The notes beneath the pieces are model-generated. The model was not told the origin of the DNA and made no database searches. It worked only from the letters and a program-made list of their open reading frames with translations. This document shows, in pieces, positions 10,763-63,670 of a stretch of 64,000 nt of DNA. Numbering within the stretch: the stretch's first letter is position 1; each line of letters starts with the position of its first letter. The position numbers were made by a program, and so were the translations under genes. This stretch comes from a virus: IMG/VR virus record IMGVR_UViG_3300045988_161046, positions 32,001 to 96,000 of that record, one strand, 5' to 3'.

Positions 10763-10797
10763 TAAACATTAATCATTAATCACTAAAACACTAATCA

Positions 10798-12189: not shown

Positions 12190-12195
12190 TTTTCA

Positions 12196-12343
12196 GTGTT
12201 GAATGTTGAGTGTTAAATGTTGAATTTGGCTAGCGCCCTTGAGCCTGGTGGGGGACCAGCGATAGAATCGCTGGGGACGGGGGCGATAGGAAGAAACGCA
12301 ACCCCGATAGACTAATTCAACATTCAACACTCAACATTGAAAT
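12196..12343. repeat. low-complexity palindrome (GTTGAATGTTGAGTG... arms) enclosing hairpin-repeat copy 3
   Basis: Left arm 12196-12226 is near-complementary to right arm 12314-12343. Confidence 0.8.
12254..12285 (+). repeat. GAACGG-hairpin repeat copy 3
   Basis: CCAGCGATAGAATCGCTGG at 12256-12274, followed by GGACGGGGGCG. Confidence 0.9.
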
Positions 12344-13335
12344 CAAAACTCCACCACGCTCTGTTCTTCCTCCCACGCATCATTGAGTGATACCGAAATG
12401 GTGGAATGGTGATTATAGTAAGAGCCGCTTACTACCGTAACATGGTTGCGCTGCAAACTGATGTTCGATAGCTTAAACGAGGTGTAAGGCTCGGTGCTGC
12501 CCTTGCGGTTCATGGTGAAGGTGATGTCCGTAGTATAGCCATCCTTCGGCACCAGGAAATAGTAGAAGAGGGAAGAGGAGGTTTTGCCGGCATATCTCGT
12601 AACGTCAGCGATACGCAGGTTTGATACCTTGCCGGTGGCGGCAAAGGTCTGCCAGTCCCATTGTTTATATTCATCGAGCTGTAACTGCAGGGTACTGCAA
12701 TCTTCCGGATATGTTCCGGTGTTCTTTACCGTCAGTTTCGCTACGATACGTTCCAGTTGGATATTGATACTCTGGTTCTGACCGACGCTTATACTCACGT
12801 CCTGCACTGCGCCGAAGCTGTCAGAGTTCTTCGTGCTCGTAAGCACAGCAGGAAGGACACCATCGGCAGACACCGAAAAGGCAGTATTATCTGCCAGACT
12901 CCATAACGAGCCATCAGCAGAGAGTAGGGTAGGGGTTTCGCTTCTCGTAGCTATCACCTTCAGCGTATGATTGCCGTAATCGAGACTCAGGGATGGCTCT
13001 GCAAAATCCTCGGCATCGGCAGTCTGGTGCAACACCTGGAGCAGTTTGCCGCTTGCCTTGTCGTAATCGAAGATGTAGAGGTCGGTCATCGCCTTGCCGT
13101 TGGCAGCAAGCTCGGCACGCGTGATAGGGTAGGCGATCCGTCGGCACTGGCTCACGCTCACGTCACCGCCTTCTGGCGAAGTAAACCGCAGTCTTACCAT
13201 AGTCTTGCCCGTCATAGGCCGGCTGCCTCCGTTCTCTACTGCATCTTCCACATACTCGGTGCATGAGGTATTCATCATCATGCACGCTGCCATCATCGCA
13301 AAGGTGGTGGCAAACAAAAACTTCTTAGTTCTCAT
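12343..13335 (-). CDS. secreted lipoprotein (fimbrillin-like fold suspected)
   Basis: Signal + lipobox 'MMMNTSC'; beta-rich; 'ERIVAKLTVKN' recalls Bacteroidota fimbrillin/Mfa-like proteins (from memory). Confidence 0.4.
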   Translation of the reverse strand: MRTKKFLFATTFAMMAACMMMNTSCTEYVEDAVENGGSRPMTGKTMVRLRFTSPEGGDVSVSQCRRIAYPITRAELAANGKAMTDLYIFDYDKASGKLLQVLHQTADAEDFAEPSLSLDYGNHTLKVIATRSETPTLLSADGSLWSLADNTAFSVSADGVLPAVLTSTKNSDSFGAVQDVSISVGQNQSINIQLERIVAKLTVKNTGTYPEDCSTLQLQLDEYKQWDWQTFAATGKVSNLRIADVTRYAGKTSSSLFYYFLVPKDGYTTDITFTMNRKGSTEPYTSFKLSNISLQRNHVTVVSGSYYNHHSTISVSLNDAWEEEQSVVEF

Positions 13336-19225: not shown

Positions 19226-19255
19226 CTTTTTTACCTTTTTACCCTTTTACCTTTA
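19226..19255 (-). repeat. A-rich GGTAAAAG junction repeat
   Basis: Minus strand TAAAGGTAAAAGGGTAAAAAGGTAAAAAAG in a 540-nt ORF-free gap. Confidence 0.65.
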
Positions 19256-27416: not shown

Positions 27417-28082
27417 ATGAAGAAACTGGATATAAAAAGAGCCTTGCGTGAACATCACATGACGCAGGTTGAACTTTGCAAGAGAACCGGATTGCTTACT
27501 CAGAACATGAGTCCGATCATAAACGGCAATCCTACCATCTCTAAACTCTTCCAAGTAGCCGAAGGCATCGGCTGCGACATCACCGACCTCTTCTATCCCG
27601 ACCCTGCGGAAGAAGCAGAGGAGAGAGACAAGGCACTCGAAAACGCAAAGAATAGCAAGATGCCGCTGGAACTTATTCTGCGTGACCTGACAAGAAGAGC
27701 CTATCCTAGCATCACGAAAGAGGAAATGGAGGAATGGATGGATGTCATCAGAAATAAGAATATGGTTCCTTGGTTTGATATAAATCCAAGCCAAATGGGT
27801 CTGCAGAATGCGATGGATAAGCTAAGACAATTCGAAGAGGCTAGAAAGAAGCATGAGGGCGAAACTCTGAACGAAACGCTGCGGGGCGATTTGCCGGAAG
27901 GTATCATCAGCAGAGATGTGAAGTTTGTGCAGCAGGGAGCAGGGAGCGAGCCATCCTATCAGGTTCACGAAAACGGACTGGAATCAGAAAACCAGCAGCA
28001 AATAATTCAGACTTCCACCTTCTGCCCTCACTGCGGCAAGAAAGTAAGGGTAGGAGTGGTATTATTAAATGTTGAATGTTGA
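27417..28082 (+). CDS. XRE/CI-like HTH repressor candidate
   Basis: 'MTQVELCKRTGLLTQNMSPIINGNPTISKLFQVAEGIGCDITDLF'; C-terminal 'CPHCGKK'; divergent from the leftward operon. Confidence 0.6.
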   Translation: MKKLDIKRALREHHMTQVELCKRTGLLTQNMSPIINGNPTISKLFQVAEGIGCDITDLFYPDPAEEAEERDKALENAKNSKMPLELILRDLTRRAYPSITKEEMEEWMDVIRNKNMVPWFDINPSQMGLQNAMDKLRQFEEARKKHEGETLNETLRGDLPEGIISRDVKFVQQGAGSEPSYQVHENGLESENQQQIIQTSTFCPHCGKKVRVGVVLLNVEC

Positions 28083-28974: not shown

Positions 28975-29135
28975 AGGTAAAAAAGTAAAAAGGTAAAAAG
29001 GTAAAAAGAGCCTAGCGGGAGATAGGGACTCCTGCTAGGCTCTTTTCTTTTAGGACCAGCGATAGAATCGCTGGGGACGGAGGCAAGGGGGTAAGGTTCT
29101 TTTTACCTTTTTACTTTTTTACCTTTTTACCTTTA
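28972..29135. repeat. large inverted pair of A-rich GGTAAAAAG repeats enclosing a terminator hairpin and hairpin-repeat copy 4
   Basis: 28972-29008 faces 29099-29135; inner hairpin GAGCCTAGC...GCTAGGCTC at 29009-29042. Confidence 0.8.
29054..29084 (+). repeat. GAACGG-hairpin repeat copy 4
   Basis: Hairpin 29056-29074, followed by GGACGGAGGC. Confidence 0.9.
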
Positions 29136-32615: not shown

Positions 32616-34064
32616 TTAATCCAAGTCGTAAGTAAAGTTACCACCACGAAGGAAGACTATAGATGCGAAAGTTTCCAATGGGTAGATGTTTTGTTGCCTT
32701 CCCAAATTAAGTTTTTCAATGATGCGCTTGCTTGTAGTACAGAACTTATATTTCTCACTATTAGCATCATCCTTGAAAGAAAACATCACCCAACAGCGAC
32801 CACTTTTATTTGCTATCGTCACATTATCCTCGAAATCGTGAATGATTATCGGTACATGTGTCTGTGCCAACTCTGCAAGTTTCTTCTCCAGTACGTCAAA
32901 GACACGCTTACCATCCTTATCCACATTTACTTGACTTGTAGTAATTCCATGTTCTTTAAAACTCATGTTATTTTCCTTTAATATCGTATTCCATAAATTA
33001 TTACATTTTCCCCATTTAGCTATTCCCCAATAGGAAGCATACAACTCTTTCCTTCTTTTGCGGCTCTTTACTCCATGAAAGCTTTTCACCATGTTGAGTT
33101 TGGTACGCTTACGCATTCTCATGTTTTTACGGGAAAATACATATCCCACAAAGTCGATGCTGCGACCATCTATCAGCTTACTCTCATCCATCAATGGTGC
33201 AACATAGCTACTACATTTCACTACCATTCCAATACGACTAAGAATATCATCAAAGCACCTCAATAACTCATTGGCTTCTTCCTTGGTTCTAACCATCGCA
33301 ACTATATCATCGCAATGCCTATGATAAAACTCTATGTGCAATTTCTGCTTGGCATATCTGTCAACTTCCGAAAGTACGAGATTGCCGATTATCTGCTTGA
33401 TGCAGTTACCTAGTGTTATACCTCGTTCTTCACCTACATAAGCAAGTGGAGTATTCGAAGTCCAAGGACACGTTGCACGTTTCTTGGCATCTTCTTCCAG
33501 CAACAAAGGCTCAATATCCGATTCATAGTCTAAAACCGTCTTCTCTATTAGTTCTAAGAATAGGTCATCATCAATGTACCTTCTCAACGCATTCATTACA
33601 ACCTTGTGAGGCAAAGACGGATAGAACTTCCTTATATCTAGCTTTACTACGTAATGAAGATTAGGATGCTTACGCAATAGCTGTTGGGTTCTCAAAGCTG
33701 CGAATACTTGACCCTTACCCTTTCTTCCTGCCGAAGAATCGTATATCAGAATCTTCTCAACTATAGGCTCGAACACTACCTTAATGGCATGATAGAGGAT
33801 ATTCCAAGGCATGAAGTGTTGTGGATATATCACTCTGTCCTTATCCTTTGCGTGAAGAACCCTGGGACGATAAGGCTTCGTAGGATATTCTCGCAAAATT
33901 ATCATACTTTGAATCTTTTCGAGATTTGCAGTCTCATTTTTAAGAAACTGCTTCACGTACCAAGCTTCCTTATCTTTTACCACACTTGTTGCATCATTCG
34001 CACCTTCCAATAAGGTTTCCATCTTTATCACCTTGTCAATAAGATGCCTTGCTTTCTTTGTCAT
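32616..34064 (-). CDS. DGR-type reverse transcriptase
   Basis: 'LDIRKFYPSLPH', 'GITLGNCIKQIIGNL' (DGR-like [LI]GxxxSQ-type motif), 'HRHCDDIVAM' (xxDD), 'DFVGYVF'; adjacent TR. Confidence 0.85.
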   Translation of the reverse strand: MTKKARHLIDKVIKMETLLEGANDATSVVKDKEAWYVKQFLKNETANLEKIQSMIILREYPTKPYRPRVLHAKDKDRVIYPQHFMPWNILYHAIKVVFEPIVEKILIYDSSAGRKGKGQVFAALRTQQLLRKHPNLHYVVKLDIRKFYPSLPHKVVMNALRRYIDDDLFLELIEKTVLDYESDIEPLLLEEDAKKRATCPWTSNTPLAYVGEERGITLGNCIKQIIGNLVLSEVDRYAKQKLHIEFYHRHCDDIVAMVRTKEEANELLRCFDDILSRIGMVVKCSSYVAPLMDESKLIDGRSIDFVGYVFSRKNMRMRKRTKLNMVKSFHGVKSRKRRKELYASYWGIAKWGKCNNLWNTILKENNMSFKEHGITTSQVNVDKDGKRVFDVLEKKLAELAQTHVPIIIHDFEDNVTIANKSGRCWVMFSFKDDANSEKYKFCTTSKRIIEKLNLGRQQNIYPLETFASIVFLRGGNFTYDLD

Positions 34065-34270
34065 TATTTCAAAGAGTCGCTTATTTTTCCTCGCCCTAGG
34101 CTTTTCTCCATACTGGCTGCATGGCTACATCACCTAGCTTGTCTGTAATTTAATACTGACCTTTCTGCGTATATGTTTTGGCAGTCCACTAAAGACCGCC
34201 AAGGTTCACGAAACTCAATCGAAAATGGTTTCTCTCTATAGGAGAGACTACTTTTCTGCCTTGATTGATT

Positions 34271-34389
34271 TTATAAGTTAGACGAGCCCCGTAATTCGTC
34301 CTGCGGTTATCGAAAGCGTTATTCGAATTGACGCAACCGAGACCGCTGTGCGACTGGTTGTTGGAATTGCCACCCCAGATACAGAGCTT
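34271..34389 (-). repeat. DGR template repeat (TR)
   Basis: 119 bp matching 34584-34702 except at 18 coding-strand adenines; contains 8 AAY codons in the VR frame. Confidence 0.9.
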
Positions 34390-34536
34390 ATGTTTCGTTC
34401 CACCTTTTATGCGAGTTGTTTGCGAATTTATGTGAATGTTAATAATTTAATTATTTAACTCTTATGCTCGCTCGCTACGGCTCGCTCGGTTTTTAATTGC
34501 CTTGCTTGCCATAGCTTGCTTGCGTTTTTTGGTGCT

Positions 34537-34555
34537 GCTGACCCTAAAGGTCAGC
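34537..34555 (-). promoter_or_regulatory. hairpin just 3' of VR (7-bp stem, 5-nt loop) overlapping the target stop codon
   Basis: GCTGACC-CTAAA-GGTCAGC read directly; placed like DGR homing-associated hairpins. Confidence 0.5.
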
Positions 34556-35845
34556 TCCGTTTACGATTTTCGGTAATGCGCCATAATAAGCGAGACGAGC
34601 CCCGCAATCCGCCCTGCGGATATCGAAAGCGTTACTCGAATGGACGCAACCGAGACCGCCGCGCGACCGGGCGCCGGAATAGCCACCCCAGATACAGAGC
34701 TGCCCAACAGGCTTATTATTGCCGTCATAGCACCAATACTTATCTCCCCAACGGCTACCAGAGCCACCTCCACCTTGTGAAGGAATGAGGTCGAAATGTT
34801 CACCAATCGCCATCTTTGCTATCCACATTTCTTGACTTCCCAATCGTTGAATAGTACGATATGTTCCTGTAGGATGGCTAATAAGTTCCGCATCGGTCGG
34901 CAGTCGATTACCTTCGTATATAAACGCCTCTAGTCCAGTCTGTCCTTCATTGTTTACATTACCGAAATAGATACCTTGTCTCATTTCCCATTGCCAGTTG
35001 TACCAGTCCTCGACACCAAAGAGAGATACACGACAAGCATTCGGTGCATTAGTTAACGTGATAGGTATCTTACCGCAACTATCTCCAAGTGATATTGTTG
35101 CACCCGTCTTCAACTGAGAAACTCCACCCCAGTTGTCTGCCCATTCACCTTCACCGCCAACACCATTTCCGATATTAGCTTGTACGTTAGGATTGCCATA
35201 CTCGGATAGGTTTGTCATCATTCCCCATTGACCATGCTCGTAGCAAGTGATACCATAATCCTTACCATTGTTTCTAGCGAGATTCCAGAAATCACGGATA
35301 AATCTGCTTCCTGATACATCAATGTTCTTACCGCTACGAGAATGAAGAGCATTACCAGCAACACTACCCATGTATGCACCAATCATCGGATGCTCGATAT
35401 AATAGCCACCAATAGGATATTGTGACTGCCATACAACATTGCATCCCATTGATGCATCATACTTAACGACAAAATAAAGGCGTGGAGCTACCACGAATAC
35501 ATCACCTTTCGATTCATCAACGGTCGTACCATCCGCAAAAATCGAACTATTGATAGATGATAGTTTTGCCATCTTCTCACCTCCAGTCTTCACAAGGTAG
35601 CGACCGATAGCTCTCTTGTACTCTTCCCATAAGGAGAGATTACCTATTCTTCCCCAATTTTGACTATCTTCGTCTTGTTTGATAGGTGTACCCCACGCTA
35701 TCAGAGCCAAATCAAGTTGATTAGTCTGAATAGAGTTAGCCAAATCAGACAGCTTGATACGTCTGAGCGAGCCACCAACCTCTATCAATAAAGTATCACC
35801 CTTAACCATTGATGATACCAATGCTACTGTTGCAAGATTTTTCAT
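34544..35845 (-). CDS. DGR target protein (C-type-lectin-fold-like variable C-terminus), receptor-binding candidate
   Basis: VR covers the last ~40 codons: 'QLCIWGGYSGARSRGGLGCVHSSNAFDIRRADCGARLAYY'. Confidence 0.8.
   Translation of the reverse strand: MKNLATVALVSSMVKGDTLLIEVGGSLRRIKLSDLANSIQTNQLDLALIAWGTPIKQDEDSQNWGRIGNLSLWEEYKRAIGRYLVKTGGEKMAKLSSINSSIFADGTTVDESKGDVFVVAPRLYFVVKYDASMGCNVVWQSQYPIGGYYIEHPMIGAYMGSVAGNALHSRSGKNIDVSGSRFIRDFWNLARNNGKDYGITCYEHGQWGMMTNLSEYGNPNVQANIGNGVGGEGEWADNWGGVSQLKTGATISLGDSCGKIPITLTNAPNACRVSLFGVEDWYNWQWEMRQGIYFGNVNNEGQTGLEAFIYEGNRLPTDAELISHPTGTYRTIQRLGSQEMWIAKMAIGEHFDLIPSQGGGGSGSRWGDKYWCYDGNNKPVGQLCIWGGYSGARSRGGLGCVHSSNAFDIRRADCGARLAYYGALPKIVNGADL
34584..34702 (-). 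repeat. DGR variable repeat (VR)
   Basis: See TR; 11 T>C, 4 T>G and 3 T>A differences on the plus strand relative to TR. Confidence 0.9.
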
Positions 35846-40382: not shown

Positions 40383-40415
40383 TTTTATTGTTTGGATTTT
40401 TATTTATTTATAAGG

Positions 40416-40452
40416 CAAAGATAAAGGGTTTCGATTTTTTAGTTGGGACAAA
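40416..40452 (-). promoter_or_regulatory. N25-class promoter-like module TTTGTCCC-N21-TATCTTTG
   Basis: Minus strand TTTGTCCCAACTAAAAAATCGAAACCCTTTATCTTTG. Confidence 0.55.
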
Positions 40453-40455
40453 AAA

Positions 40456-40486
40456 CCCAGCGATGGAATCGCTGGGAACGGAGGCG
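40456..40486 (+). repeat. GAACGG-hairpin repeat copy 5
   Basis: CCCAGCGAT-GGA-ATCGCTGGG; on the minus strand it is followed by T6 (terminator-like). Confidence 0.9.
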
Positions 40487-40513: not shown

Positions 40514-41575
40514 CTAGATGGAGGCGAAGGGGTTGCCGTTGATACCTAGAGTGGCGGTAAAGGAAACGGAATACATATTCTTGTTGGTTTCGTCCTTGAT
40601 GGTTATCTCATCTTCAAGATTGATGATACAAGGAAACCAGGCATCATTTGCTTTCAGCCATACGTGCCCAGACATCAGGAACTCATGGAGATACCACTGC
40701 TGCCATGCCTTGGTGAGCGGGTCACTCTGATAGAGCCAACTTTCACGATCATTCTGCTTATGAATAGCCGAACGGGAGAACTCATTGAAGGTTTCCTGAA
40801 TAGCTTTCGTATATTGCGTGCTCTCGACACTCATATTCTGAGAATAGGATTTCGGAACACTGATGCTCTCCATACAACCGAAGCGGTTAATGAAACGGAA
40901 GGTGGTACGGTCTTCAGCTTCAGAGGATGGCAGGGCATAGATAGGGTGTCCATGAATGCTCTGCGCACCCTCCTTCGTGATTTCCTGCTCCCTAGATACA
41001 GGGGCGGTCAGTGAGCTGCTGGTAGCTAAGTTCTGCCCTTCGCTATAGGAGACAGGATAAACAAAGCTCTCGCCTACAACGGCTATTTCGTGGGTATCAG
41101 TCGGTTTGCAGGAGAGAAGGGTGACAGCCTTCGTTACGCCCGATTTCAGGCGCTCTATATCGCTGAAGGCACCAGCTATGCAGCGAAGGTTGGTGCTTCC
41201 TCCATTCTTTGAGCCATCAGCTGGATAATAGACTTCGCCTACACCGGTATGCACCTCGCCGTTGTTATCCATATACTCATCGTAGGCTTTGATGTACCAG
41301 CTTACTACCGGATAGGTAGATGGAGTAGCAGTATACTTATAGCTATCCAGCGTAATGCGGAGAGCAGAGGATATATCGAGCGATACATCTCTTTCCTCGG
41401 TGGTAACAGGAATGGTGAGCTTATTGGTTTCGTAACTTCCCGTACCATCATCGAAATGCACCTCTACAATGACCCGATGGAAAGATGGCTTCGTAGCCAA
41501 GGAAGGGGTGATGGTAAAGGTTATCGGGTTTCCGGCAAAGACCGAACCCGATGTGAGATTGATTTTCAGTGCCAT
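40514..41575 (-). CDS. virion module protein
   Basis: 353-aa ORF. Confidence 0.45.
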   Translation of the reverse strand: MALKINLTSGSVFAGNPITFTITPSLATKPSFHRVIVEVHFDDGTGSYETNKLTIPVTTEERDVSLDISSALRITLDSYKYTATPSTYPVVSWYIKAYDEYMDNNGEVHTGVGEVYYPADGSKNGGSTNLRCIAGAFSDIERLKSGVTKAVTLLSCKPTDTHEIAVVGESFVYPVSYSEGQNLATSSSLTAPVSREQEITKEGAQSIHGHPIYALPSSEAEDRTTFRFINRFGCMESISVPKSYSQNMSVESTQYTKAIQETFNEFSRSAIHKQNDRESWLYQSDPLTKAWQQWYLHEFLMSGHVWLKANDAWFPCIINLEDEITIKDETNKNMYSVSFTATLGINGNPFASI

Positions 41576-41594
41576 AGTTATTCTTTTTTTTGAA

Positions 41595-41695
41595 GGGTAA
41601 AAAGGTAAAAGAGTAAAAAGGTAAAAAGAACCTTAACCGCTCTTTTGCCTTTTACTATTTTTTACCTTTTTACCTTTTTACTTTTTTACTTTTAA
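41595..41695. repeat. inverted pair of A-rich GGTAAAAAG repeats
   Basis: 41595-41628 faces 41648-41695; the right arm encodes the ACP C-terminal 'KVKK*'. Confidence 0.8.
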
Positions 41696-41926
41696 AATCA
41701 CAAGATTGACTACATCAGAAACGAGTTTGCAATCTTTCGCCTCTTCCGGAGTAATCTTGATGTGGAACATCATTTCCACCTGCTGGATCATATCGAGAAA
41801 ATCAATAGACTCAAGTTCTACCTCGTCACGAAGATTAGAGTGCTCTGTTACCTCGTGTTTTACCCATTCAGTTTTCACGCTGTTCACGATGGTAATAATG
41901 CGAGATGTTATTTCTTCTTTTTTCAT
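41678..41926 (-). CDS. acyl carrier protein
   Basis: 82 aa, acidic; 'ELESIDFLDMIQQVEMMF' matches the ACP DSL-helix pattern, with Ser as the phosphopantetheine site. Confidence 0.7.
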   Translation of the reverse strand: MKKEEITSRIITIVNSVKTEWVKHEVTEHSNLRDEVELESIDFLDMIQQVEMMFHIKITPEEAKDCKLVSDVVNLVILKVKK

Positions 41927-41928
41927 AA

Positions 41929-43131
41929 CTATACTTTTGAAATAATAAATGAGGAGTTTGTACCGCCAAAGCCGAAGGCATTACAGAGAATATGGTGAGG
42001 GGAGTACCACTTAGGGCGCATTACCAGGTTAAGATGAGGGAAAGCATTCTCATCGGTGGTGGCTGCATGGAACAGACGGCCATAAGCGAACATCGCTACG
42101 GCTTGCACGGCTTGAGATACGCCCGCCATCCAACACTCGTGACCCGTCATCCCTTTTGTAGCTACTACGTTCGGACAGATAGGGAAAATTCTCTCTATTG
42201 CCTTTGCCTCGGCTTCATCGCCCATCGGTGTACCCGTAGCATGAGCAAGTACTACGTCTATCATACCTTCGTCCAATCCTGCGTCCTCGATAGCATTCAG
42301 CATCGACACTTCTTCCTGATAGCTATCAGGGGTAGTGATGGCCTTGCCGTTTGAAGAGAAACCATAACCGGAAAGGGAAGCGAAGGAAGGCACCTTCTCT
42401 TCTTTCAATCGAAGACTATCCGATGGTTCGAGGATGATGCAGGCTGCACCACCAGATGGGGCGAGTCCGTTTCTATTCTTGCCAAACGGCTGCACCTTAT
42501 CGGGTGAGAAGACACGCAGCGCATCGAATGCCTCCATGCTATAAAGTGATGTCGTTTCCTGCGTACCAACAACGATAACCATCTCGGTCTGTTTGCTATC
42601 AAGAAGCATCTTGGCAAGACCGATTGCATGGCCACCTCCTGCACAGGCCGCACTTACGGTAAGTGATAGGCCATGAATACCGAGGATAGTAGCCAGGTTC
42701 ATACTGATAGCGGAATTAAGTGTTTTGAACAGAGTTCCTGTCTCCAGGTATCTATTATTGAGATCATAATCTACATGATGAACTACCTCTCTTGTTTCGT
42801 AACACTCAGAGTCGTTACTAACGATGACAGAAACATTATGGTTCTGAAGGAAATCATCGCTTATCTTTGCTTTCCTCAAAGCTTCAAAAACGGCATCAAG
42901 TGCATAAAAACCATGTAAGGGCATACTATTGAGTTGTGTCCGAGTTAACTTTTTCGAGTAATCTCCTTTCCAACCAGTCACACGACCGCACAACTCCGAA
43001 AGATAATGCTCTCTGATTTTGTCGTGATATAGTCCGCATTTGCCCTTGTAGAGGTTCATGGCTACTTCTCTTGTATTTCTACCCATGGCAGAAATAATAC
43101 CGGTTCCGGTAATCAATATCTTTTTATCCAT
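41929..43131 (-). CDS. beta-ketoacyl-ACP synthase, FabB/FabF (Cys-His-His) type
   Basis: 'SAACAGGGHAIG', 'AHATGTPMGD', 'KGMTGHECWMAG', 'NAFGFGGTNSSFII'. Confidence 0.85.
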   Translation of the reverse strand: MDKKILITGTGIISAMGRNTREVAMNLYKGKCGLYHDKIREHYLSELCGRVTGWKGDYSKKLTRTQLNSMPLHGFYALDAVFEALRKAKISDDFLQNHNVSVIVSNDSECYETREVVHHVDYDLNNRYLETGTLFKTLNSAISMNLATILGIHGLSLTVSAACAGGGHAIGLAKMLLDSKQTEMVIVVGTQETTSLYSMEAFDALRVFSPDKVQPFGKNRNGLAPSGGAACIILEPSDSLRLKEEKVPSFASLSGYGFSSNGKAITTPDSYQEEVSMLNAIEDAGLDEGMIDVVLAHATGTPMGDEAEAKAIERIFPICPNVVATKGMTGHECWMAGVSQAVQAVAMFAYGRLFHAATTDENAFPHLNLVMRPKWYSPHHILCNAFGFGGTNSSFIISKV

Positions 43132-43185
43132 TTTTATTTTCTTTTTATGTTATAAAACATATTTTCTATTTAAAAGCTTTTGCCC

Positions 43186-45990
43186 TTACAGGGCGTACAC
43201 TGTTAACTCAACCTCGCCCATTCCCGTCTTGGCATCGATGGTGGTGTTTACCTTGTCTATGAGGCATTTCATACCGCCTATATTCCACCATTCCTGCCAG
43301 TGGTTCGGTATATCGGCCACTTGCGCTACGGTGGTGGTACATCTCACCATAAACTTCTTTCTGTTTAAGAGGAAGTAAGCGTAGGGGAGGACGAAGGTAT
43401 CAAAGAGGCCACGGGAGCGAACCTTCTTAACCACCTTACCATTTTTATCTACCTCATCTTTATCACAAAGTACTACATTTTGATACTTCGGATCACTCAA
43501 CCACGATGGTTCCTTGAAAGCACGTATCTTGAGTGAGAATTTTTCACCTTCGCCCGTTCCTTCCTGAATACCATTATAGTCAAATTCATTACCCATCATA
43601 TCCAATGAATCGCATGCCAGGGCATACTTACCAGATACGGTACGCCATTTGGACGTTCCGAAGTGGTCGTAATTATAATCGTAAGACTGGCGGGTAGCAT
43701 CGCTACCACCGCCTCGCATCAAAGCAACCGCATATCCCCAGCGTGAATCATCCTGCAACGGAGAGTTGCCATCATCGGTGCTCGAAGGGTCGTAGCTTTC
43801 TACGAGTGATAGTGTCTGCTGCATGTAGAAATCACAGAAAGCAGTAGAGATAGTCTGATTGATAATCTGCTCCACAAACTCATGCTCCATATCCTCATCT
43901 ACATAAGCACAGAGGATAGGCTGACCGTCAGCGATAGTTACACCATATTTCTTGCCGTTGTAGGAGTCGATTGCCTCGTGAGAGCCATAGGCAGCTTCTA
44001 TCTCTTTGAAATAGTTCACGTCATTAAACGGAACAGGAGTAAAATCTACCGAAATATCGTGAACGAAATCTTTGTTCTCATCACTGCAATCTCCATATTC
44101 TACACCCTTGAACTGACCTACTTCAAAGAGTACCGGTTTCAAGTCGGCTGTCGTGGTTGCATCACTATTCACTTTTACGCGATAAGCGTTGCCAGTCTTG
44201 CGGTCGATATAGCAGTGCTTATCTCCACTACTCAGATTATGGAAGAAATCGATGTAGTCGAGATTGTAGACCGTGGAATTATCGCCACTATCGGGCGCAG
44301 GGTAATCGATGTAGTCGTAATCGGTAGAGTAACCCATATTCTTGTTTCTACGGCTATCGAGTACATTCTGACGCTGATCTTTTGCATCACTCTCTGCAGA
44401 ATAGCGCATACGCACACCTGTAATTTTCTCTGTCACCGGAATCATTGAATGAATATTGGCATGAAATGTTCTTGCCTTATCGCCACTCTTGCGCAGCACA
44501 TCACGGGTGAGATAGGCTGTTACCTTCTTTTGTTCGTAATCATACGAAAACTTGATACCAAAGGCGCTTTCCAGCGAAGAGATAATGGTGCTTACACTCT
44601 CGTCGGGGAAATTCCCGCTGTTGGCTACCATATTGAGCACGTTCGCCTGAACATTGAACTTGCTGATTTTAGCCTCGATGCTGATACCGGTTACCTTGCC
44701 GCCATCATCGCGTACCTCACCTACCTGCACATGCTCGGTCGTACCCTCTGGTGTACGGAGGGTCAACTCCTGCACATCCTTATCCTCGGCTTTCACGATA
44801 TTAATCTTTCCACCGCAACCGCGGCTTTCGAGCCATGAATTGATATGCTCCTGACTTTGAAAATAACCTGTCTTTATTTCACCAGCTTTCTTCTTCTTGG
44901 CGATGACTTCGGCATCAGTTTCGCTGTAATAAGTACCATGATGAGGATGTTGAATGGTATCGTAGCTGCATACGGTCGTGAAGAAGCAGAGGTGTTTCAA
45001 ATCCTCTATCTCCATTAATGCCTTCTTGTCGAATGTAACACCAAGATAGTCAAAGAGGCAATCGAGGAAATAAAGCACATAGAAGCAGATACCAGACTGC
45101 GGGCGTTTTGCATCCAATACCCAATAAGGATAAAGGTCTTCATTCGTCCAGGTACAATCCTTCATGCTGATAATGCCGCTATCAGTTTTTTTTCCTTCTT
45201 CGTCCAAACCATGATGTTTATAACAGATACGTGCGTTGCAATAAGAAGCGGCTCTACCCGCGCCGTCGGTTTCACCATAGGCTGCGGCGGTATTGATGTA
45301 GTTTCCGTTACTAGCGATGGCAGGCTCATTTACAATGTGGTTCTGGGGATAGGAGCGCTCTGACATAATCTTAGCATCTCCTTTTTTGTGATGGGTGCCT
45401 GTAGTAGTCCATTCCACGCAATTAGCAGGATAAGAGAAACCGAGTGCCTGCGGTTCGAGAACCTTGCTTACGCTTACGTGGGCGGCTCTGATTTCGTGGA
45501 TTTCCGTCTTATCATCCTTATGCTTACCTCCGGTAACAAAAACATTTACCTTTACCACAGGGTCGCTCTCTATATCCACCCTCACATTACCTATCTTCTC
45601 GCCGATGATAATCTGGTCCTTGACCGGAATATCACGACATTGCAGGTCGCTGATAAGCTCGCTGAAACTCTGGGTGCTGGCATCGATGTTCATACTGAGG
45701 GAATCGGTTATCTCCTCATCGTCCTGCATGACCAAGGTACCGCTGCGGAATGGCAGTCCGTCGGCATGAATGCGGGTAGGCAGGTGCTCCATGTTTACGG
45801 CTTTTACCGCTGCATGCACGTCTTCTATGTTCTTTACCAGCCAGCGGTTGCCATCTAGCGGAATAGAGAAAGGATAGGAGAACATTTCCGTATCGTTGAA
45901 CACAGGGTTCTGGTCCTCTATATCTATAGAGAAATCATCGGGCAAAGCTACCGGCTTGTCATTGATTAATATCGTAAGATGCGAGTTCAT
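43186..45990 (-). CDS. large virion (baseplate/tail) protein
   Basis: 934-aa ORF; assigned by position only. Confidence 0.4.
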   Translation of the reverse strand: MNSHLTILINDKPVALPDDFSIDIEDQNPVFNDTEMFSYPFSIPLDGNRWLVKNIEDVHAAVKAVNMEHLPTRIHADGLPFRSGTLVMQDDEEITDSLSMNIDASTQSFSELISDLQCRDIPVKDQIIIGEKIGNVRVDIESDPVVKVNVFVTGGKHKDDKTEIHEIRAAHVSVSKVLEPQALGFSYPANCVEWTTTGTHHKKGDAKIMSERSYPQNHIVNEPAIASNGNYINTAAAYGETDGAGRAASYCNARICYKHHGLDEEGKKTDSGIISMKDCTWTNEDLYPYWVLDAKRPQSGICFYVLYFLDCLFDYLGVTFDKKALMEIEDLKHLCFFTTVCSYDTIQHPHHGTYYSETDAEVIAKKKKAGEIKTGYFQSQEHINSWLESRGCGGKINIVKAEDKDVQELTLRTPEGTTEHVQVGEVRDDGGKVTGISIEAKISKFNVQANVLNMVANSGNFPDESVSTIISSLESAFGIKFSYDYEQKKVTAYLTRDVLRKSGDKARTFHANIHSMIPVTEKITGVRMRYSAESDAKDQRQNVLDSRRNKNMGYSTDYDYIDYPAPDSGDNSTVYNLDYIDFFHNLSSGDKHCYIDRKTGNAYRVKVNSDATTTADLKPVLFEVGQFKGVEYGDCSDENKDFVHDISVDFTPVPFNDVNYFKEIEAAYGSHEAIDSYNGKKYGVTIADGQPILCAYVDEDMEHEFVEQIINQTISTAFCDFYMQQTLSLVESYDPSSTDDGNSPLQDDSRWGYAVALMRGGGSDATRQSYDYNYDHFGTSKWRTVSGKYALACDSLDMMGNEFDYNGIQEGTGEGEKFSLKIRAFKEPSWLSDPKYQNVVLCDKDEVDKNGKVVKKVRSRGLFDTFVLPYAYFLLNRKKFMVRCTTTVAQVADIPNHWQEWWNIGGMKCLIDKVNTTIDAKTGMGEVELTVYAL

Positions 45991-45997: not shown

Positions 45998-46034
45998 TTT
46001 TTTACCTTTTTACCTTTTTACTTTTTTACCTTTA
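45998..46034 (-). repeat. A-rich GGTAAAAAG junction repeat
   Basis: Minus strand TAAAGGTAAAAAAGTAAAAAGGTAAAAAGGTAAAAAA between two ORFs. Confidence 0.8.
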
Positions 46035-46044: not shown

Positions 46045-46698
46045 TTACCCTCTTAACATTATCTGTGCACTATCGTACAAATCTATGAGTCGATCGGTAA
46101 AAGTTTCGATGGTTGCCGTGCCAAAGGCATTGATTTTCTGATGCCCATGGTCGTGAAGGGTGCCATCGGTAATGAAGACTACACTCTGGTCGTAGCTCTC
46201 TGCCTCGCTGCCCGTCACCAGGTGGGCATAGTTTCGGGCGATACCGTAACCTGCCTTGATGGTTGCCTTGCTGCCATCCAATAACTCTATCTTGCAGCCT
46301 TCATTCATTACGAGGGCGGTAGCGGCATTATGAAGGATGACGTGCGCCTTGCCGAGGACGTATATCTTTCGGGAGGAGTAGAGATGTATCACCTCGTCTG
46401 TATCGCCCACAAGGACGGTTCCGGTAGGCGAATCTTCGTTGTAGAAGATGCCACCCTGATTTATATCTGCCTTGAACTCCGGATATACGGCTTTGAAGGC
46501 ATCGATTACCTGCTGCGGTACCTCGGTGATTAAGCCATGCCAGTACTTGCGCCACGCCTCGCACATATCCGGAATGCTCTGCGTGCTTTTGAAGGCATGC
46601 TGGGATTCCTGGCAGTTCCCGCTCTGGGCGAGGATATTGACGCAAAGGGTTTTAAAACGCTGCGTGCGCTGTTCTTGGGTTTCTTTATTCTTTGCCAT
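46045..46698 (-). CDS. hypothetical protein
   Basis: 217-aa ORF after an N25 promoter module. Confidence 0.5.
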   Translation of the reverse strand: MAKNKETQEQRTQRFKTLCVNILAQSGNCQESQHAFKSTQSIPDMCEAWRKYWHGLITEVPQQVIDAFKAVYPEFKADINQGGIFYNEDSPTGTVLVGDTDEVIHLYSSRKIYVLGKAHVILHNAATALVMNEGCKIELLDGSKATIKAGYGIARNYAHLVTGSEAESYDQSVVFITDGTLHDHGHQKINAFGTATIETFTDRLIDLYDSAQIMLRG

Positions 46699-46723
46699 TG
46701 CTTTTTTCTTTTTATTTATATGG

Positions 46724-46760
46724 CAAAGATAGGGGGTTTTTTCTTATTAGGGGGGACATA
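46724..46760 (-). promoter_or_regulatory. N25-class promoter-like module (TATGTCCC variant)-N21-TATCTTTG
   Basis: Minus strand TATGTCCCCCCTAATAAGAAAAAACCCCCTATCTTTG. Confidence 0.5.
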
Positions 46761-46769: not shown

Positions 46770-46800
46770 CCCAGCGATTGAATCGCTGGGAACGGGGGCG
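46770..46800 (+). repeat. GAACGG-hairpin repeat copy 6
   Basis: CCCAGCGAT-TGA-ATCGCTGGG; followed by a T-run on the minus strand. Confidence 0.9.
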
Positions 46801-49222: not shown

Positions 49223-49260
49223 TTTTTTTACCTTTTTACTTTTTTACTTTTTTACCTTTA
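49223..49260 (-). repeat. A-rich GGTAAAAAG junction repeat
   Basis: Spans the stop of 49258..51075 to just before the ATG at 49215. Confidence 0.8.
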
Positions 49261-51211: not shown

Positions 51212-51223
51212 GAGGGGAGGGGA

Positions 51224-51253
51224 CCAGCGATAGAATCGCTGGGAACGGAGGCT
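51224..51253 (+). repeat. GAACGG-hairpin repeat copy 7
   Basis: Hairpin 51224-51242. Confidence 0.9.
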
Positions 51254-52020: not shown

Positions 52021-52162
52021 ACTCTAATAATATTTTCGGTTTATCAACATCATGCCCTTTGCCCCCCCCACAAAGGCATAGGGCAATACCTTTCGGATGC
52101 ACGATAATGCCATTTTGGGATGGACTATAAGAACCGAGGATAATAGGACGATTACAAATCAT
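52013..52162 (-). pseudogene. C5-MTase TRD mini-ORF a (contains G8 tract)
   Basis: MICNRPIILGSYSPSQNGIIVHPKGIALCLCGGGKGHDVDKPKILLEYE*; ATGA overlap with the upstream ORF. Confidence 0.45.
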
Positions 52163-53460
52163 TTCTTCTCCAAAAACTGATGATACAAATTATCTAACTT
52201 TGGATTTTGGAACTTGCCGTTCTCTTTCCAGTCATTGAACAGCGGCATGATGATGTCCTCGTGAGCAGAAGAAATCTCCTCCTGCAGTTCTTTTAGAGTG
52301 CAATTCCAAAGATGCGCCTCTTCTATATAAAGAGTGAGGATGGCTTTCAATGCCATTGCATTCTCGTGGCTCGGCTCTATCTCGAACTGATGGAAGACGC
52401 AGGTGTCTTTATCGTTTGCCTGGAGGAATTTGCTGACGGCTTCATCTTTCAGGAAGAACCTTGTATCTACTTCTTCCTGCAACACATCTTCCAGCTTTCT
52501 CTTCAGCGGAATAGGGTCGGGGAACTGGTAATCGAAGGCTACATCTTTTCTCATCGAGAGGCAGAATACTCGGTCGCGGTTCTGCGGAACACCATAGTCT
52601 TTGGCATTGAGTCTTGCCCATCGGCTTACGTAACCGAGAGATGAGAGCTTATCAAGCCACTTCTGAAAATCGGGCATAAACTTCTCACTTACCAGGGCTG
52701 CCACATTCTCCTGGAGTAGATACTTCGGTCGCAATACTTCCACGGCATCGGCTACTCGCCACAATAATGCCGAGCGGGTATCGGAACCTTCCTTCAAACC
52801 CATCTGCTTGCCGGCTTGCGATATATCCTGACAAGGTGAGGAATAGGTAAAGAGGTCGATTTCTTGCCCCCCCACATTACGCTTTACCTGTTGCCAGTCG
52901 ATTTTGGTTATATCGCCCAAGGCTTTGTCGGCAAACTGCGGAAAGATGAGATTGTGCATCTGACAGGCATACTTATCTATATCGCTCCAGCCTACACACG
53001 TCCAGCGGAAATCAGGGTGCTGCTGGGCGAGGACATCGGCTGCCATCAACTGCGAGTCGTAACCGGAGAAGGTGGTGAGGATAAGTTTCTCGCCATGGTT
53101 CTTATCTACCGGATAGGTAGGGAGTTGGTCTTCTGGGAAGAAATCGGCAAAAAATGAAGTCTGCGCCTCATGCTTCGGTTCTTTCGGGTACCAGAGTTGC
53201 TGATAGATGGCTGCGAGCACATCTACCACGATGGAGTTACCTGCCTGCTTGTATTGCTGACTGGCTGATACTGCCATATCTTCTGCCTTTCCCTTGCTCT
53301 TATAGCCGGCTACTCGCTCGGCTGCCTGGGCGTTGGTACTTTGCATCGTGCGGATCACATCATCACGCACACCCATCAGTCGAAAACACTCGAAGGGTGT
53401 CAGCTTTCGGATGGCATAAGACTTAATGGTCTTATCCTTGAAATTGAACTTTGTTATCAT
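52159..53460 (-). CDS. cytosine-C5 DNA methyltransferase, circularly permuted motif order (IX-X then I-IV-VI-VIII)
   Basis: 'IRKLTPFECFRLMGV' (IX), 'YKQAGNSIVVDVL' (X), 'LTTFSGYDSQ' (I), 'SSPCQDIS' (IV), 'LLQENVAAL' (VI), 'VPQNRDRVF' (VIII). Confidence 0.8.
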   Translation of the reverse strand: MITKFNFKDKTIKSYAIRKLTPFECFRLMGVRDDVIRTMQSTNAQAAERVAGYKSKGKAEDMAVSASQQYKQAGNSIVVDVLAAIYQQLWYPKEPKHEAQTSFFADFFPEDQLPTYPVDKNHGEKLILTTFSGYDSQLMAADVLAQQHPDFRWTCVGWSDIDKYACQMHNLIFPQFADKALGDITKIDWQQVKRNVGGQEIDLFTYSSPCQDISQAGKQMGLKEGSDTRSALLWRVADAVEVLRPKYLLQENVAALVSEKFMPDFQKWLDKLSSLGYVSRWARLNAKDYGVPQNRDRVFCLSMRKDVAFDYQFPDPIPLKRKLEDVLQEEVDTRFFLKDEAVSKFLQANDKDTCVFHQFEIEPSHENAMALKAILTLYIEEAHLWNCTLKELQEEISSAHEDIIMPLFNDWKENGKFQNPKLDNLYHQFLEKK

Positions 53461-53938: not shown

Positions 53939-55045
53939 TCATTTGTTCCTCCTCATCTTTTCCATTTCCTCATTCTCTTTCGACAACCTTTCGAGATGTT
54001 CGAGAACGAGGGAATAAGACTGAGTATTGACCTGATCTTCCGTTAGGCCGACATACTTCTGCATCGTAGCGGTGGTGACGGTGTAGATCTCCATCGGGGT
54101 TTGCGGCTTGGTGTTGTTTGCCTTCTGTACCTTGAACACGTGAGGGTAGCGATGAGCTAGGGTGTGCATGATGCCCGTCCACCAGAAGAGGATGACCTGC
54201 CAGTTTGCCTCTGGGAAATTGACGAAATACTTTGCGTTCTCGGTGAACTGCTTTGACTCGTAATGAAAATCGTATTTCGTGATGCCTGTTGTCGGATCGA
54301 CGTACTGGGTGGTGGTGTTGAAGATGGTGGCAAGGAACATGTTTCTGGCGCTAGCTACGCTCTGAGCTTGCGTCTGAAGTTGCTCCTCGATGAACTTATC
54401 CATCTGCTTCATCTTTACCAGGTTATTGCTTAACTTGGTGTAGGTCTGCATCATATCGCTAGCAAAACGGTATTGCTGCCAGGAAAAGCCATCGAGGTCT
54501 GTACTCGGACCGCGGAAGGCTTTGGCACGACGATACCACTTGGCTTTCTGTCCGATGAGCGGATAGGGGAAGAGGGTGAGGAAATTGCCGCTGTCTGCAT
54601 CCAGCCAGTCGAGAAGACCTGCGCCCTGAGCGATATACTCAGGGGAGGTTTTATCCTTGGTCTTGGCTTTCGGAGAGAGCCAATAGTTGAGCTGCCAAAG
54701 ATAGAGGGGAAAGTGGCTGCCGGACTGCGGACCAGCGATAGAATCGCTGGGAACGGGGGCGCAGAGGGAGAGGAGCTTCTTCAGAAGGCTCTTCTTCTGC
54801 GGCTCTATGCTTACCAGGTAGTGCTGCTCATTGATAGGCATGCGAGGGTCGGGATAGGCATTGATGCCTATTCCGGCAAAAAGGAAGAAAACGGCTATCT
54901 TCACCTTCTGCATATCGAAGGGGTGATAGCGGTCTGCCTTGGCTATCTGCTCCAGCATGATGAGGGCAATCTGCTCCAGCTGGGTAGGGGTGCATTGGTT
55001 CCAGCCGCGGGGGATGGTGAGGTTTATCTGTTCTTGCATAATCAT
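53939..55045 (-). CDS. hypothetical protein (carries in-frame hairpin-repeat copy 8)
   Basis: 368-aa ORF. Confidence 0.5.
   Translation of the reverse strand: MIMQEQINLTIPRGWNQCTPTQLEQIALIMLEQIAKADRYHPFDMQKVKIAVFFLFAGIGINAYPDPRMPINEQHYLVSIEPQKKSLLKKLLSLCAPVPSDSIAGPQSGSHFPLYLWQLNYWLSPKAKTKDKTSPEYIAQGAGLLDWLDADSGNFLTLFPYPLIGQKAKWYRRAKAFRGPSTDLDGFSWQQYRFASDMMQTYTKLSNNLVKMKQMDKFIEEQLQTQAQSVASARNMFLATIFNTTTQYVDPTTGITKYDFHYESKQFTENAKYFVNFPEANWQVILFWWTGIMHTLAHRYPHVFKVQKANNTKPQTPMEIYTVTTATMQKYVGLTEDQVNTQSYSLVLEHLERLSKENEEMEKMRRNK
54730..54762 (+). repeat. GAACGG-hairpin repeat copy 8 (inside ORF)
   Basis: Consensus hairpin at 54732-54750, encoding 'APVPSDSIAGP'. Confidence 0.9.
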
Positions 55046-55153: not shown

Positions 55154-55708
55154 TTAAAATATGATTTTCTTGCCGCCATTGGCGATGAGGGAGCCGTATT
55201 TGATGGCTTCTAATCTGCGGAGCCAGCCTTTCTCAAATACCTTCTGACTAGGGTGCTTGGCGATGATGCCGGAGATGTATTGCTTGCGGCGTACCTTGAT
55301 GCGGGCGAAGAACTGACTAGGGTTCTGGGCGTTGAGGGCAGCGAGGGTCTGCTTGCCTACGATGCCATCGGCTGTTACGCCCAGCATGGCTTGCACGAGG
55401 GTGATGCCTGGAGTACCGCTAGACCATACCCAATCTACCAGAATGTTGGCAATGCTCTGGTCTTTGATGCCATCGGCTTTCCATCGGTTCCAATAACAGC
55501 GGCGAAGGATGGCAGTGAAATCGGCTTTGGTGATAAGCTTTACATCCTTTGCATCGATGCGGCCATCATGGTTCTTGTCATAACCTTGGGTTTGCCAGGT
55601 TTTCAGCGTTACGCCCATGTTGGTAGGGCCGCCCTTGTCGTTGGGGTGGTTTACGTAACCTCCTTCAAAGGAGAGAATGAAATCTGCAAGAGGTTGAATC
55701 TTTGCCAT
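55154..55708 (-). CDS. endolysin, GH108 N-acetylmuramidase with peptidoglycan-binding C-domain
   Basis: 'FEGGYVNHPNDKGGPTNMGVT' GH108 signature; 'GVTADGIVGKQTLAAL' PG-binding-like. Confidence 0.8.
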   Translation of the reverse strand: MAKIQPLADFILSFEGGYVNHPNDKGGPTNMGVTLKTWQTQGYDKNHDGRIDAKDVKLITKADFTAILRRCYWNRWKADGIKDQSIANILVDWVWSSGTPGITLVQAMLGVTADGIVGKQTLAALNAQNPSQFFARIKVRRKQYISGIIAKHPSQKVFEKGWLRRLEAIKYGSLIANGGKKIIF

Positions 55709-55744
55709 ATATTTTCTGTTTTATCGTTTTTATTTCTTCTGAGG

Positions 55745-55782
55745 GCAAAGATAGGGGTTTCTATTTTATTCGAGGGGACAAA
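55745..55782 (-). promoter_or_regulatory. N25-class promoter-like module TTTGTCCC-N21-TATCTTTG
   Basis: Minus strand TTTGTCCCCTCGAATAAAATAGAAACCCCTATCTTTG. Confidence 0.55.
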
Positions 55783-57848: not shown

Positions 57849-57959
57849 AATTGTATCTTTTTTGATGATTAAACGAAATGGCGGCGGAAGCCATATTCCG
57901 CCAGGTCAGGCGACCGCCGCCGAGGATTTATAGAGGGAATACCTTTTCTGCCTGTTGGA

Positions 57960-57989
57960 CCAGTGATGGAATCGCTGGGGACGGGGGCA
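57960..57989 (+). repeat. GAACGG-hairpin repeat copy 9
   Basis: CCAGTGAT-GGA-ATCGCTGG (one T.G pair on the plus strand); just 3' of the capsid gene stop. Confidence 0.85.
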
Positions 57990-60940: not shown

Positions 60941-61042
60941 GTGGGTAATAAATTTTTAAAAATAAATGTATGTTATCGTTATCCTGAATACAAATCTCCT
61001 TACCTTATTTAGCAAAAGAAGACCTTTCAATATTTCTGACGG

Positions 61043-61080
61043 CAAAGGTAAAGGAAATACATGGGCATATAGGGACAAAA
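61043..61080 (-). promoter_or_regulatory. N25-class promoter-like module TTTGTCCC-N21-TACCTTTG
   Basis: Minus strand TTTGTCCCTATATGCCCATGTATTTCCTTTACCTTTG. Confidence 0.5.
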
Positions 61081-61103
61081 TAAAGGTAAAAAGGTAAAAA
61101 AAC
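61081..61103 (+). repeat. A-rich GGTAAAAAG repeat
   Basis: TAAAGGTAAAAAGGTAAAAAAAC. Confidence 0.7.
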
Positions 61104-63615: not shown

Positions 63616-63641
63616 TGCTTTTTACTTTTTTTGCTTACGGA

Positions 63642-63670
63642 CCAGCGATAGAATCGCTGGGAACGGAAGC
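63642..63670 (+). repeat. GAACGG-hairpin repeat copy 11
   Basis: Consensus hairpin at 63642-63660. Confidence 0.9.

Follow-up and report, generated by a model that had tools for sequence, protein, structure and literature searches.

A divergent ketosynthase and acyl carrier protein gene pair carried as an inserted cassette by a family of ~100-kb phages

Among the late genes of the phage DNA analysed here (the window, 64,000 nucleotides; positions 32,001 to 96,000 of the IMG/VR record IMGVR_UViG_3300045988_161046) lie a ketosynthase (KS) gene and an acyl carrier protein (ACP) gene, and the question is what a virus would do with these two parts of an acyl-chain elongation system. A preliminary description of the window had called them a FabF-type KS and an ACP embedded in a baseplate or tail operon, which might acylate a virion component. 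In this study, we compared both genes with characterised enzymes, with cellular and viral relatives and with related phage genomes. With moderate confidence, we consider the pair to be an auxiliary metabolic cassette in which a KS, predicted to be active and of the homodimeric (FabB/ApeR-like) type, works with a dedicated ACP and feeds a specialised envelope lipid.

The KS gene (41929..43131, on the minus strand like all features below for which a strand is given) encodes 400 amino acids with the motifs SAACAGGGHAIG, AHATGTPMGD, KGMTGHECWMAG and NAFGFGGTNSSFII. Both domains of the enzyme family were recognised in Pfam, PF00109 with 94.4 bits (1.1e-26) and PF02801 with 66.6 bits (2.6e-18), the cutoffs being 20.8 bits. 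The best match in the PDB was FabB (4xox, 2.5e-39), and the protein aligned end to end with FabB and FabF structures at ~28% identity. In a multiple alignment with Escherichia coli FabB and Staphylococcus aureus FabF, Cys163, His297, Thr299, Thr301, Lys326, His331 and the gating Phe388 were all retained and in register, which confirms the Cys-His-His signature noticed previously. By its domains and its triad, the KS is a member of the elongating beta-ketoacyl-ACP synthase superfamily (KAS I/II-like). The motifs SAACAG, HATGT, KGxTGHECWM and FGFGGTN were invariant in all 121 KS homologues (57-95% identity), and the catalytic residues are likewise intact in other viral lineages. Purifying selection acts on both genes: pairwise Nei-Gojobori comparison of 16 family members gave dN/dS values of 0.109 for the KS and 0.139 for the ACP, level with those of the neighbouring core genes, named here by the length of their products (g217, 0.084; g934, 0.104; g370, 0.109; g353, 0.151).

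The FabF-type label did not hold. The KS scored 176.8 bits with the FabF equivalog TIGR03150 (cutoff 493.75) and 166.1 bits with the FabB model NF005935 (cutoff 630), stayed below every NCBIfam equivalog cutoff, and matched no PHROG family. After the second catalytic histidine the phage protein reads GHECWMAG, whereas FabB has GHSLGAAG and FabF GHLLGATG. In neighbour-joining trees based on Kimura-corrected distances, the GHECWM-type KSs formed one clade (bootstrap 100% and then 99%) that left FabB, FabF and the paralogous KSs of the cellular clusters described below outside; the phage KS belongs to this 'HECWM' clade both by the motif GHECWM(A/S)G and by monophyly. Because of its low scores, its different post-histidine motif and its separate clade, we conclude that the phage KS is neither FabF nor FabB. 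We also considered a type II polyketide synthase minimal set (KS-alpha, chain-length factor and ACP) and ruled it out, since no chain-length factor (CLF) without the active-site cysteine lies beside the KS. The KS gene is single: no CLF subunit or second KS gene was found in the window or in ~37 kb of the ~41 kb beyond it, as read from the closest complete relative (IMGVR_UViG_3300029717_000002).

Which pathway, then, do the nearest relatives serve? Beyond the phage family, identity to the KS of the window reaches 43% for a stand-alone KS and 37-39% for the best cellular copies. Every cellular member of the clade with a readable gene context lies in a specialised lipid cluster, and none in a fab operon. 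The clusters of the nearest cellular relatives (37-39%) contain an ACP, ApeP/ApeI-like dehydratases, a ketoreductase (KR), a 4HBT thioesterase, MMPL and LolA proteins and an amine oxidase. On pig-gut contigs with Bacteroidales-like flanks, for example, the KS and ACP genes, in the same order as in the phage (loci L064-L066), are accompanied by ApeP-like and ApeI-like dehydratases and an MMPL exporter, and then by a phytoene-desaturase-like oxidase, a KR, a LolA-like protein and a 4HBT thioesterase. Metagenome-assembled genomes (MAGs) of rumen Bacteroidales, Desulfobacterota and Planctomycetota hold variants of the cluster to which KS/CLF genes, acyltransferases and radical-SAM enzymes are added. 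The paralogous KSs of these clusters have GHTLAASG at the GHECWMAG position. Judged by their gene content, the cellular HECWM clusters are aryl-polyene (APE)-like. The viral copies, which come from several phage lineages, form one subclade of their own (bootstrap 95% and then 93%). A GenBank record labelled 'Bacteriophage sp.' (MT837464.1, 6.8 kb) carries a KS with 38% identity that groups with the cellular Bacteroidales KSs at 100% bootstrap, and this record may be bacterial DNA with a cellular cluster.

The ACP gene (41678..41926) begins 2 nt past the KS stop codon and encodes 82 amino acids with a pI of 5.3. It matched the PP-binding family PF00550 (8.4e-6, 26.4 bits, cutoff 20.8) and PHROG 5934, 'acyl carrier protein', and the serine of its ELESID motif aligned with the phosphopantetheine-bearing DSL serine of solved ACPs (PDB, 2.8e-6), which bears out the serine helix proposed in the preliminary description. 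An ACP ORF with (L/F)ES(I/L)D is present at every locus of the family. The protein fails the model for housekeeping AcpP (TIGR00517, 28.5 bits, cutoff 70.45), and its nearest characterised match is E. coli ApeF, with 38% identity over 53 amino acids. Most viral ACPs, including those of the window and of three other loci (L062, L071, L391), have a glutamate instead of the usual aspartate before the phosphopantetheine serine ((F/M/L)ES(I/L)D), and the ACPs of the cellular clusters as well as ApeE and ApeF have DS(L/I)D there.

A pair of this kind could also have reached the record by a mis-joined assembly of a bacterial fabF-acpP locus with phage sequence, and many ~25% 'phage' matches in databases are evidently host fabF or fabB on mislabelled records; these made up most such matches in an annotated phage collection, which held no close relative of the KS. 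The pair of the window is of a different nature. Related IMG/VR loci from many samples, 61 in all, carry its KS at 57-95% identity, and the gene order g370-g217-g934-KS-ACP-g353-g687 was identical in all related loci with enough flank. More than 120 KS protein clusters with 83-95% identity are found in public assemblies on contigs of up to ~150 kb. Since this order is shared by many independent viral loci and cellular KSs are only 37-39% identical, a chimera or host contamination, for which a near-identical fabF-acpP locus with host flanks would be expected, is refuted. The window has a uniform GC content, and nearly all of its genes lie on one strand; they include phage-type genes for a homologue of the S49 head-maturation protease, a GH108 endolysin, tail proteins (PHROGs), DNA methyltransferases, a ParA protein and a reverse transcriptase. 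The complete genome has ~104 kb, and IMG/VR contigs with the pair are mostly 50-110 kb long. The KS and ACP thus form a genuinely phage-borne minimal pair, found in the same position across ~62 IMG/VR viral contigs.

We next asked whether the pair belongs to the tail genes among which it lies. The KS and ACP genes are indeed co-directional with, and tightly packed between, the ORFs of 934 and 353 amino acids, with gaps of 54 nt (g934 to KS) and 102 nt (ACP to g353). Because g934 is more conserved than the KS, it was used as the query to reach distant relatives, and in four relatives without the pair g934 is followed by g353 after only 6-13 nt (L351, with a g934 of 48% identity, and L354, L363 and L366, each with one of 38%). 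The gene g687 follows g353 in L354, L363 and L366; the L351 contig stops at g353. The ancestral order is therefore g934-g353; the KS-ACP pair was inserted there in the ancestor of the clade to which the window belongs, and the clade has kept it. In having been inserted between two genes that adjoin each other in related phages, the pair fits a phage moron or auxiliary metabolic cassette.

The sister lineages of the pair are placed differently. A census of IMG/VR for TGHECWM-encoding DNA returned 76 contigs, ~62 of the window's family and 14 others. In the main second viral lineage (~100-kb contigs), a gene for a tape-measure protein of up to 1,933 aa is followed by an ACP (87 aa), a KS (410-416 aa) and a primase region. 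Elsewhere the order is methyltransferase-ACP-KS-primase (L068/L069) or ketoreductase-KS-ACP (L070), and L391, a 161-kb contig, has KS-ACP. Further APE-cluster genes were absent from all of these viral lineages. The insertion and the differing positions speak against a role bound to specific tail proteins, so that the pair is better described as an inserted cassette than as part of a baseplate or tail operon. Tail-protein PHROGs and the target of a diversity-generating retroelement (DGR) do lie 4-7 kb downstream of the pair; on its upstream side, genes for an endolysin and a methyltransferase are mixed in.

The absence of acyltransferase, reductase, dehydratase and phosphopantetheinyl transferase (PPTase) genes, also noticed before, was borne out and extended. 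Family-profile searches of all 73 ORFs of the window against Pfam yielded no PPTase, malonyl/acyl transferase, KR, dehydratase or enoyl reductase, and the PPTase, FabD, KR, dehydratase, enoyl reductase and PlsC families were not matched by 43 more ORFs of the closest complete relative, which brings the scanned part to ~96% of the genome. The genes of this relative beyond the window encode a tape-measure protein of 2,085 aa, ThyX, a PAPS reductase, the DNA polymerase III beta subunit, MazG, a guanylate kinase and a GNAT acetyltransferase. Since no partner families were found, the pair would depend on host enzymes. The GNAT protein was examined as a partner that might use acyl-ACP and judged unrelated, as it lies far from the pair in a region for nucleotide or DNA modification. 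Its gene stands between two ~205-aa radical-SAM-like ORFs (L292, 13983-16111 in IMGVR_UViG_3300029717_000002), the PAPS-reductase-family gene lies at another place in the part scanned outside the window, and the GNAT/radical-SAM set may be a DNA-modification module of the deazaguanine type.

Several known systems resemble the pair in part. NodE and NodF of rhizobia form a specialised two-gene KS and ACP unit that leaves the remaining steps to housekeeping fatty acid synthesis and provides the polyunsaturated acyl chains of Nod factors. The phage pair is alike in being a specialised KS and ACP that would rely on housekeeping enzymes; it differs in that NodE and NodF serve bacterial symbiosis and their product is known. 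FabF and FabB share with the phage KS the thiolase fold with its Cys-His-His triad, Lys326, Thr299/Thr301 and the gating Phe in FGFGG, and differ from it in the scores, motif, clade and fab-operon context described above. The cellular HECWM KSs share the GHECWM(A/S)G motif and the clade; at 34-40% identity they are invariably accompanied by KR, dehydratase, oxidase, thioesterase or exporter genes, which the copies in the window's phages lack.

The closest functional parallel is ApeR with ApeF (E. coli CFT073, Acinetobacter baumannii), like the phage pair a stand-alone FabB-like KS with a dedicated small ACP, whose pathway makes an outer-membrane lipid. ApeR is a homodimer without a CLF, and its addition raises APE throughput (PMC8358021). 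A homodimeric phage KS would be consistent with the lack of a second KS or CLF gene in the scanned ~96% of the genome. When we compared the phage proteins directly with the APE cluster of E. coli CFT073, however, both ApeO and ApeR were only 24.5% identical to the phage KS (ApeR is 35% identical to the cellular HECWM KS), and ApeR reads GHTLGACG at the GHECWMAG position. In ApeR, Tyr135 and Phe202 stack the aryl group in the substrate cavity (PMC8358021); the phage KS and the whole HECWM clade have Leu, Val or Ile in place of the Tyr, and the Phe is conserved as in all KSs. Orthology to ApeO or ApeR was rejected on identity, motif and the missing Tyr, and because the aryl-stacking Tyr is replaced, membership of the ApeR family fails and an aryl starter is not indicated. 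None of the cluster genes ApeC, D, H, I, K, L, M, P and Q is present in the phage. Phage-associated ACP and KS genes have been read as auxiliary metabolic genes (AMGs) before, in the fabG-acpP-fabF sets of putative Rhodobacteraceae prophages (PMC8224337) and in the ACPs of PHROG 5934. The prophage sets keep the order and type of host housekeeping genes (PMC8224337), whereas the KS of the window has no PHROG, belongs to a viral subclade and occurs in a minimal pair in several Bacteroidota-phage lineages.

A course of events that would fit these results begins with an ancestor of several Bacteroidota-phage lineages, which may have acquired the KS-ACP core of an APE-like outer-membrane lipid pathway. 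In the window's phage family the pair would then have been inserted between two ancestrally adjacent late genes, and it would be transcribed by read-through within a late unit, g217-g934-KS-ACP-g353. In the infected cell, a host PPTase would turn the phage ACP into holo-ACP, malonate would be loaded onto it by host FabD, and the phage KS would condense an acyl starter with malonyl-ACP. The product could be finished either by the type II fatty acid synthase (FAS II) of the host or by the enzymes of a host APE-like cluster (ketoreductase, dehydratases, thioesterase, and MMPL/LolA export). Malonyl units might thereby be diverted to a private carrier, and the envelope of the infected cell might gain a specialised acyl or polyene lipid, or more of one. 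The KR beside the pair in L070 is what would be expected if the function is real chain elongation. Conjectural in this proposal are the host enzymes on which the pair would depend, the kind of product and what the phage would gain. Two reports describe APEs as lipids of the outer membrane that shield cells from oxidative stress and favour biofilm formation (PMC13532178, PMC8253772), and by analogy stress protection of the APE type is one plausible benefit, though an aryl head group is not supported.

Some results weigh against the proposal. The phage KS is distant from ApeO and ApeR and has no aryl-stacking Tyr. The host is deduced from two contigs in Prevotella MAGs and from promoter boxes and may or may not have an APE-like cluster, and the timing of expression is deduced solely from signals in the DNA. 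Moreover, ~3.7 kb of the relative's genome, and those ORFs that matched no family, could still hold partner enzymes.

The pair might instead be an extra FabF and AcpP that sustain phospholipid supply during infection, as the prophage fabG-acpP-fabF sets may do. An elongating KS with an intact triad and an ACP could in principle pair with host FAS II, and the ACP belongs to a recognised phage AMG family (PHROG 5934). We nevertheless regard such a generic booster as unlikely: the KS reaches 177 of the 494 bits needed for FabF and 166 of 630 for FabB, the ACP 28.5 of 70.45 for AcpP, the tree puts the KS away from FabF and FabB in a clade tied to specialised lipid clusters, and its nearest cellular homologues never occur in fab operons. 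Acylation of a virion or receptor-binding protein, in which a chain on the phage ACP would be moved to g934 or g353 and yield a lipidated tail component, drew on the position of the pair, which would share one transcription unit with both genes, lies 4-7 kb from tail proteins and a DGR-diversified receptor-binding protein and adjoins the tape-measure gene in the second viral lineage. This link is not conserved, because sister lineages place the pair elsewhere, by replication genes or a KR and without a homologue of g934 or g353. The pair also interrupts genes that work without it in relatives, no acyltransferase was matched in ~96% of the genome, and the virion role of g934 and g353 is itself a presumption, with no family or PDB match and unusable models. 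Virion acylation thus received no specific support, and we consider it very unlikely.

Equally little speaks for interference, in which the two proteins would serve as decoys, sequester malonyl groups, acyl intermediates or enzymes of the host and thereby shut down its APE-like envelope-lipid pathway or its fatty acid synthesis. That just two core parts, derived from a specialised host pathway, are carried without finishing enzymes would suit a decoy. A decoy would, however, not need catalytic residues that are invariant in 121 homologues and kept in other viral lineages, and the KR added in one lineage (L070) points to productive chemistry, so that interference appears improbable. Overall, what remains of the preliminary reading is a phage-borne minimal pair with an intact triad and no partners on the late strand; the FabF type, membership in a tail operon and virion acylation were not retained.

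The proposal of an envelope-lipid cassette can be carried further, although we think its extended form doubtful: a private, virus-specific KS-ACP module in several lineages of gut and rumen Bacteroidota phages would reprogram the outer-membrane lipids of the infected cell, driving or retuning an APE-like antioxidant or envelope lipid pathway late in infection. If so, protection of the virocell from oxidative stress, a block to superinfection or a changed behaviour of outer-membrane vesicles or lysis would be possible, and phage-directed biosynthesis of specialised lipids would be previously undescribed. Lipid-metabolism genes of phages and other viruses are patchily known, from cyanophage desaturases, sphingolipid genes of algal viruses and isoprenoid enzymes of some gut phages to scattered acpP and fabF listings. 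Literature searches on phages and aryl polyenes, phage-encoded ACP or ketoacyl genes, AMGs and ketoacyl genes, and Flandersviridae returned no description of the pair, in line with the earlier remark that such a pair in a tail module is not known to have a described function. What is new is a viral variant of type II KS-ACP pairs and of phage AMGs, apparently derived from APE-like lipid clusters: a divergent, catalytically intact pair with its own viral subclade that recurs in ~100-kb phages abundant in human-gut and other metagenomes. If it is active, these phages change the envelope chemistry of a dominant group of gut bacteria, which could bear on oxidative-stress tolerance, phage-phage exclusion or immune visibility. 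The pair also offers a compact two-gene handle on the products of the uncharacterised HECWM ketosynthases.

As to its expression, the pair lies on the late-gene strand and is apparently co-transcribed with its neighbours, in agreement with the late expression proposed earlier; the timing is judged from the following signals. A Bacteroidota-type -7 promoter box, TATCTTTG (46722..46731), lies upstream of g217 (46045..46698), which is syntenic in all related loci, and is the presumed promoter of g217-g934-KS-ACP-g353. The unit would be bounded upstream by a conserved intrinsic terminator hairpin with a T-run (46770..46790) and downstream by a near-identical one (40456..40476), after which a second TATCTTTG box (40414-40423) precedes g687. 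The unit would therefore run from the promoter through g217, g934, KS, ACP and g353 to the terminator. No promoter and terminator of its own was found for the KS-ACP cassette: the A-rich spacer or leader between g934 and the KS (43132..43185) has no conserved promoter box, the TAnnTTTG box being absent from its 54 nt, and the hairpin downstream of the ACP has no U-tract. A dedicated KS promoter, TATGTTTT, was considered and dropped, as a near-match occurs only in the closest relatives. The spacer itself varies among relatives, with ~20 nt in L008, a copy of the 21-nt hairpin CCCAGCGATTCNATCGCTGG in L020 and L034, and octamer arrays in L052 and L055.

The flanking genes gave few clues. The product of g934 (43186..45990, directly upstream of the KS; conserved, and a presumed virion protein) had no Pfam, PHROG, PADLOC or PDB-profile match and homologues only in its own phage group, which have no domains either. 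That of g353 (40514..41575, directly downstream of the ACP; mostly beta and conserved in the phage group) likewise had no family match (Pfam, PHROG, PADLOC) and no PDB-profile match, with homologues restricted to the group. AlphaFold models, with pLDDT values of 28 for g934 and 47 for g353, were unusable.

The inverted repeat of ~100 nt that follows the pair was confirmed as a real structure (-34 kcal/mol, z = -5.65, no U-tract after it). It is a long hairpin (41576..41690) between ACP and g353, formed by two arrays of the GGTAAAAAG octamer in inverted orientation, and overlaps the last ACP codons. It is not specific to the pair, because the GGTAAAAAG element occurs genome-wide: ~11 intergenic sites in the window hold 29 pattern matches, with 0.33 expected. 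Another array lies right upstream of the g934 start codon (46000..46030). Tandem arrays were located at 76-90, 7625-7655, 8652-8722, 19229-19251, 28976-29131 and 41596-41690, and further ones at 46000-46030, 49226-49256 and 61085-61099, often right upstream of start codons and sometimes in inverted pairs that make long hairpins. The octamers could be a regulator-binding or a translation element. Nine sites of the window hold a conserved 21-nt hairpin, CCCAGCGATTCNATCGCTGG, in each case on the coding strand (27-47, 12255-12275, 29055-29075, 40456-40476, 46770-46790, 51223-51243, 54731-54751, 57959-57979 and 63641-63661), some followed by a T-run (terminators) and others not. Boxes of the TAnnTTTG type (TATCTTTGCC or TACCTTTGCC) occur downstream of terminators at 40414-40423, 46722-46731, 55744-55753 and 61041-61050; they mark the starts of transcription units and support a Bacteroidota host. 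A sigma-70 promoter scan gave no enrichment, its model being ill-suited to Bacteroidota, and Rfam and tRNA scans of the window were empty.

Prevotella, or another of the Bacteroidales related to it, is the probable host. Close copies of the KS occur on two contigs that were binned in uncultured Prevotella MAGs, the window has the intergenic Bacteroidota -7 box, and one of its proteins resembles the Mfa2/DUF6562 fimbrial proteins of Bacteroidales. This 330-aa protein (12343-13335), with weak similarity to DUF6562 and to the fimbrial anchor Mfa2, may be a surface lipoprotein derived from the host. A ParA-type ATPase (AAA_31/CbiA, 10798-11670) and a Cro/C1-type helix-turn-helix protein (27417-28082) are also encoded, and no integrase family was matched by the window or by the remaining genome of a relative; together these findings suggest that carriage as a phage-plasmid is possible.

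Other observations concern the organisation of the phage. A C5 DNA methyltransferase (52159-53460) and a GH108/PG_binding_3 endolysin (55154-55708) lie among presumed head and tail genes, so that the long run of minus-strand genes is a late region of mixed content, not a purely structural operon. In the relative IMGVR_UViG_3300029717_000002, the 2,085-aa tape-measure protein (PhageMin_Tail, PHROG 28; L212, 8660-14917) is encoded in the part beyond window position 64000, and its location upstream of the head-protease region indicates an unconventional module order. Compared with the window, L003 is 98% identical in g934, 86% in KS, 96% in ACP and 97% in g353, and L001 93%, 94%, 87% and 93%; this mosaic of alleles (loci ~7000-12700) points to recombination between family members inside the unit. 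A complete DGR lies at 32616-35845, with its reverse transcriptase at 32616-34064 on the minus strand. Its template repeat of 116 nt (34273-34388) corresponds to a variable repeat (34586-34701) that encodes amino acids 382-420 at the C-terminus of the tail protein g433, and all 16 positions at which the two repeats differ are adenines in the template.

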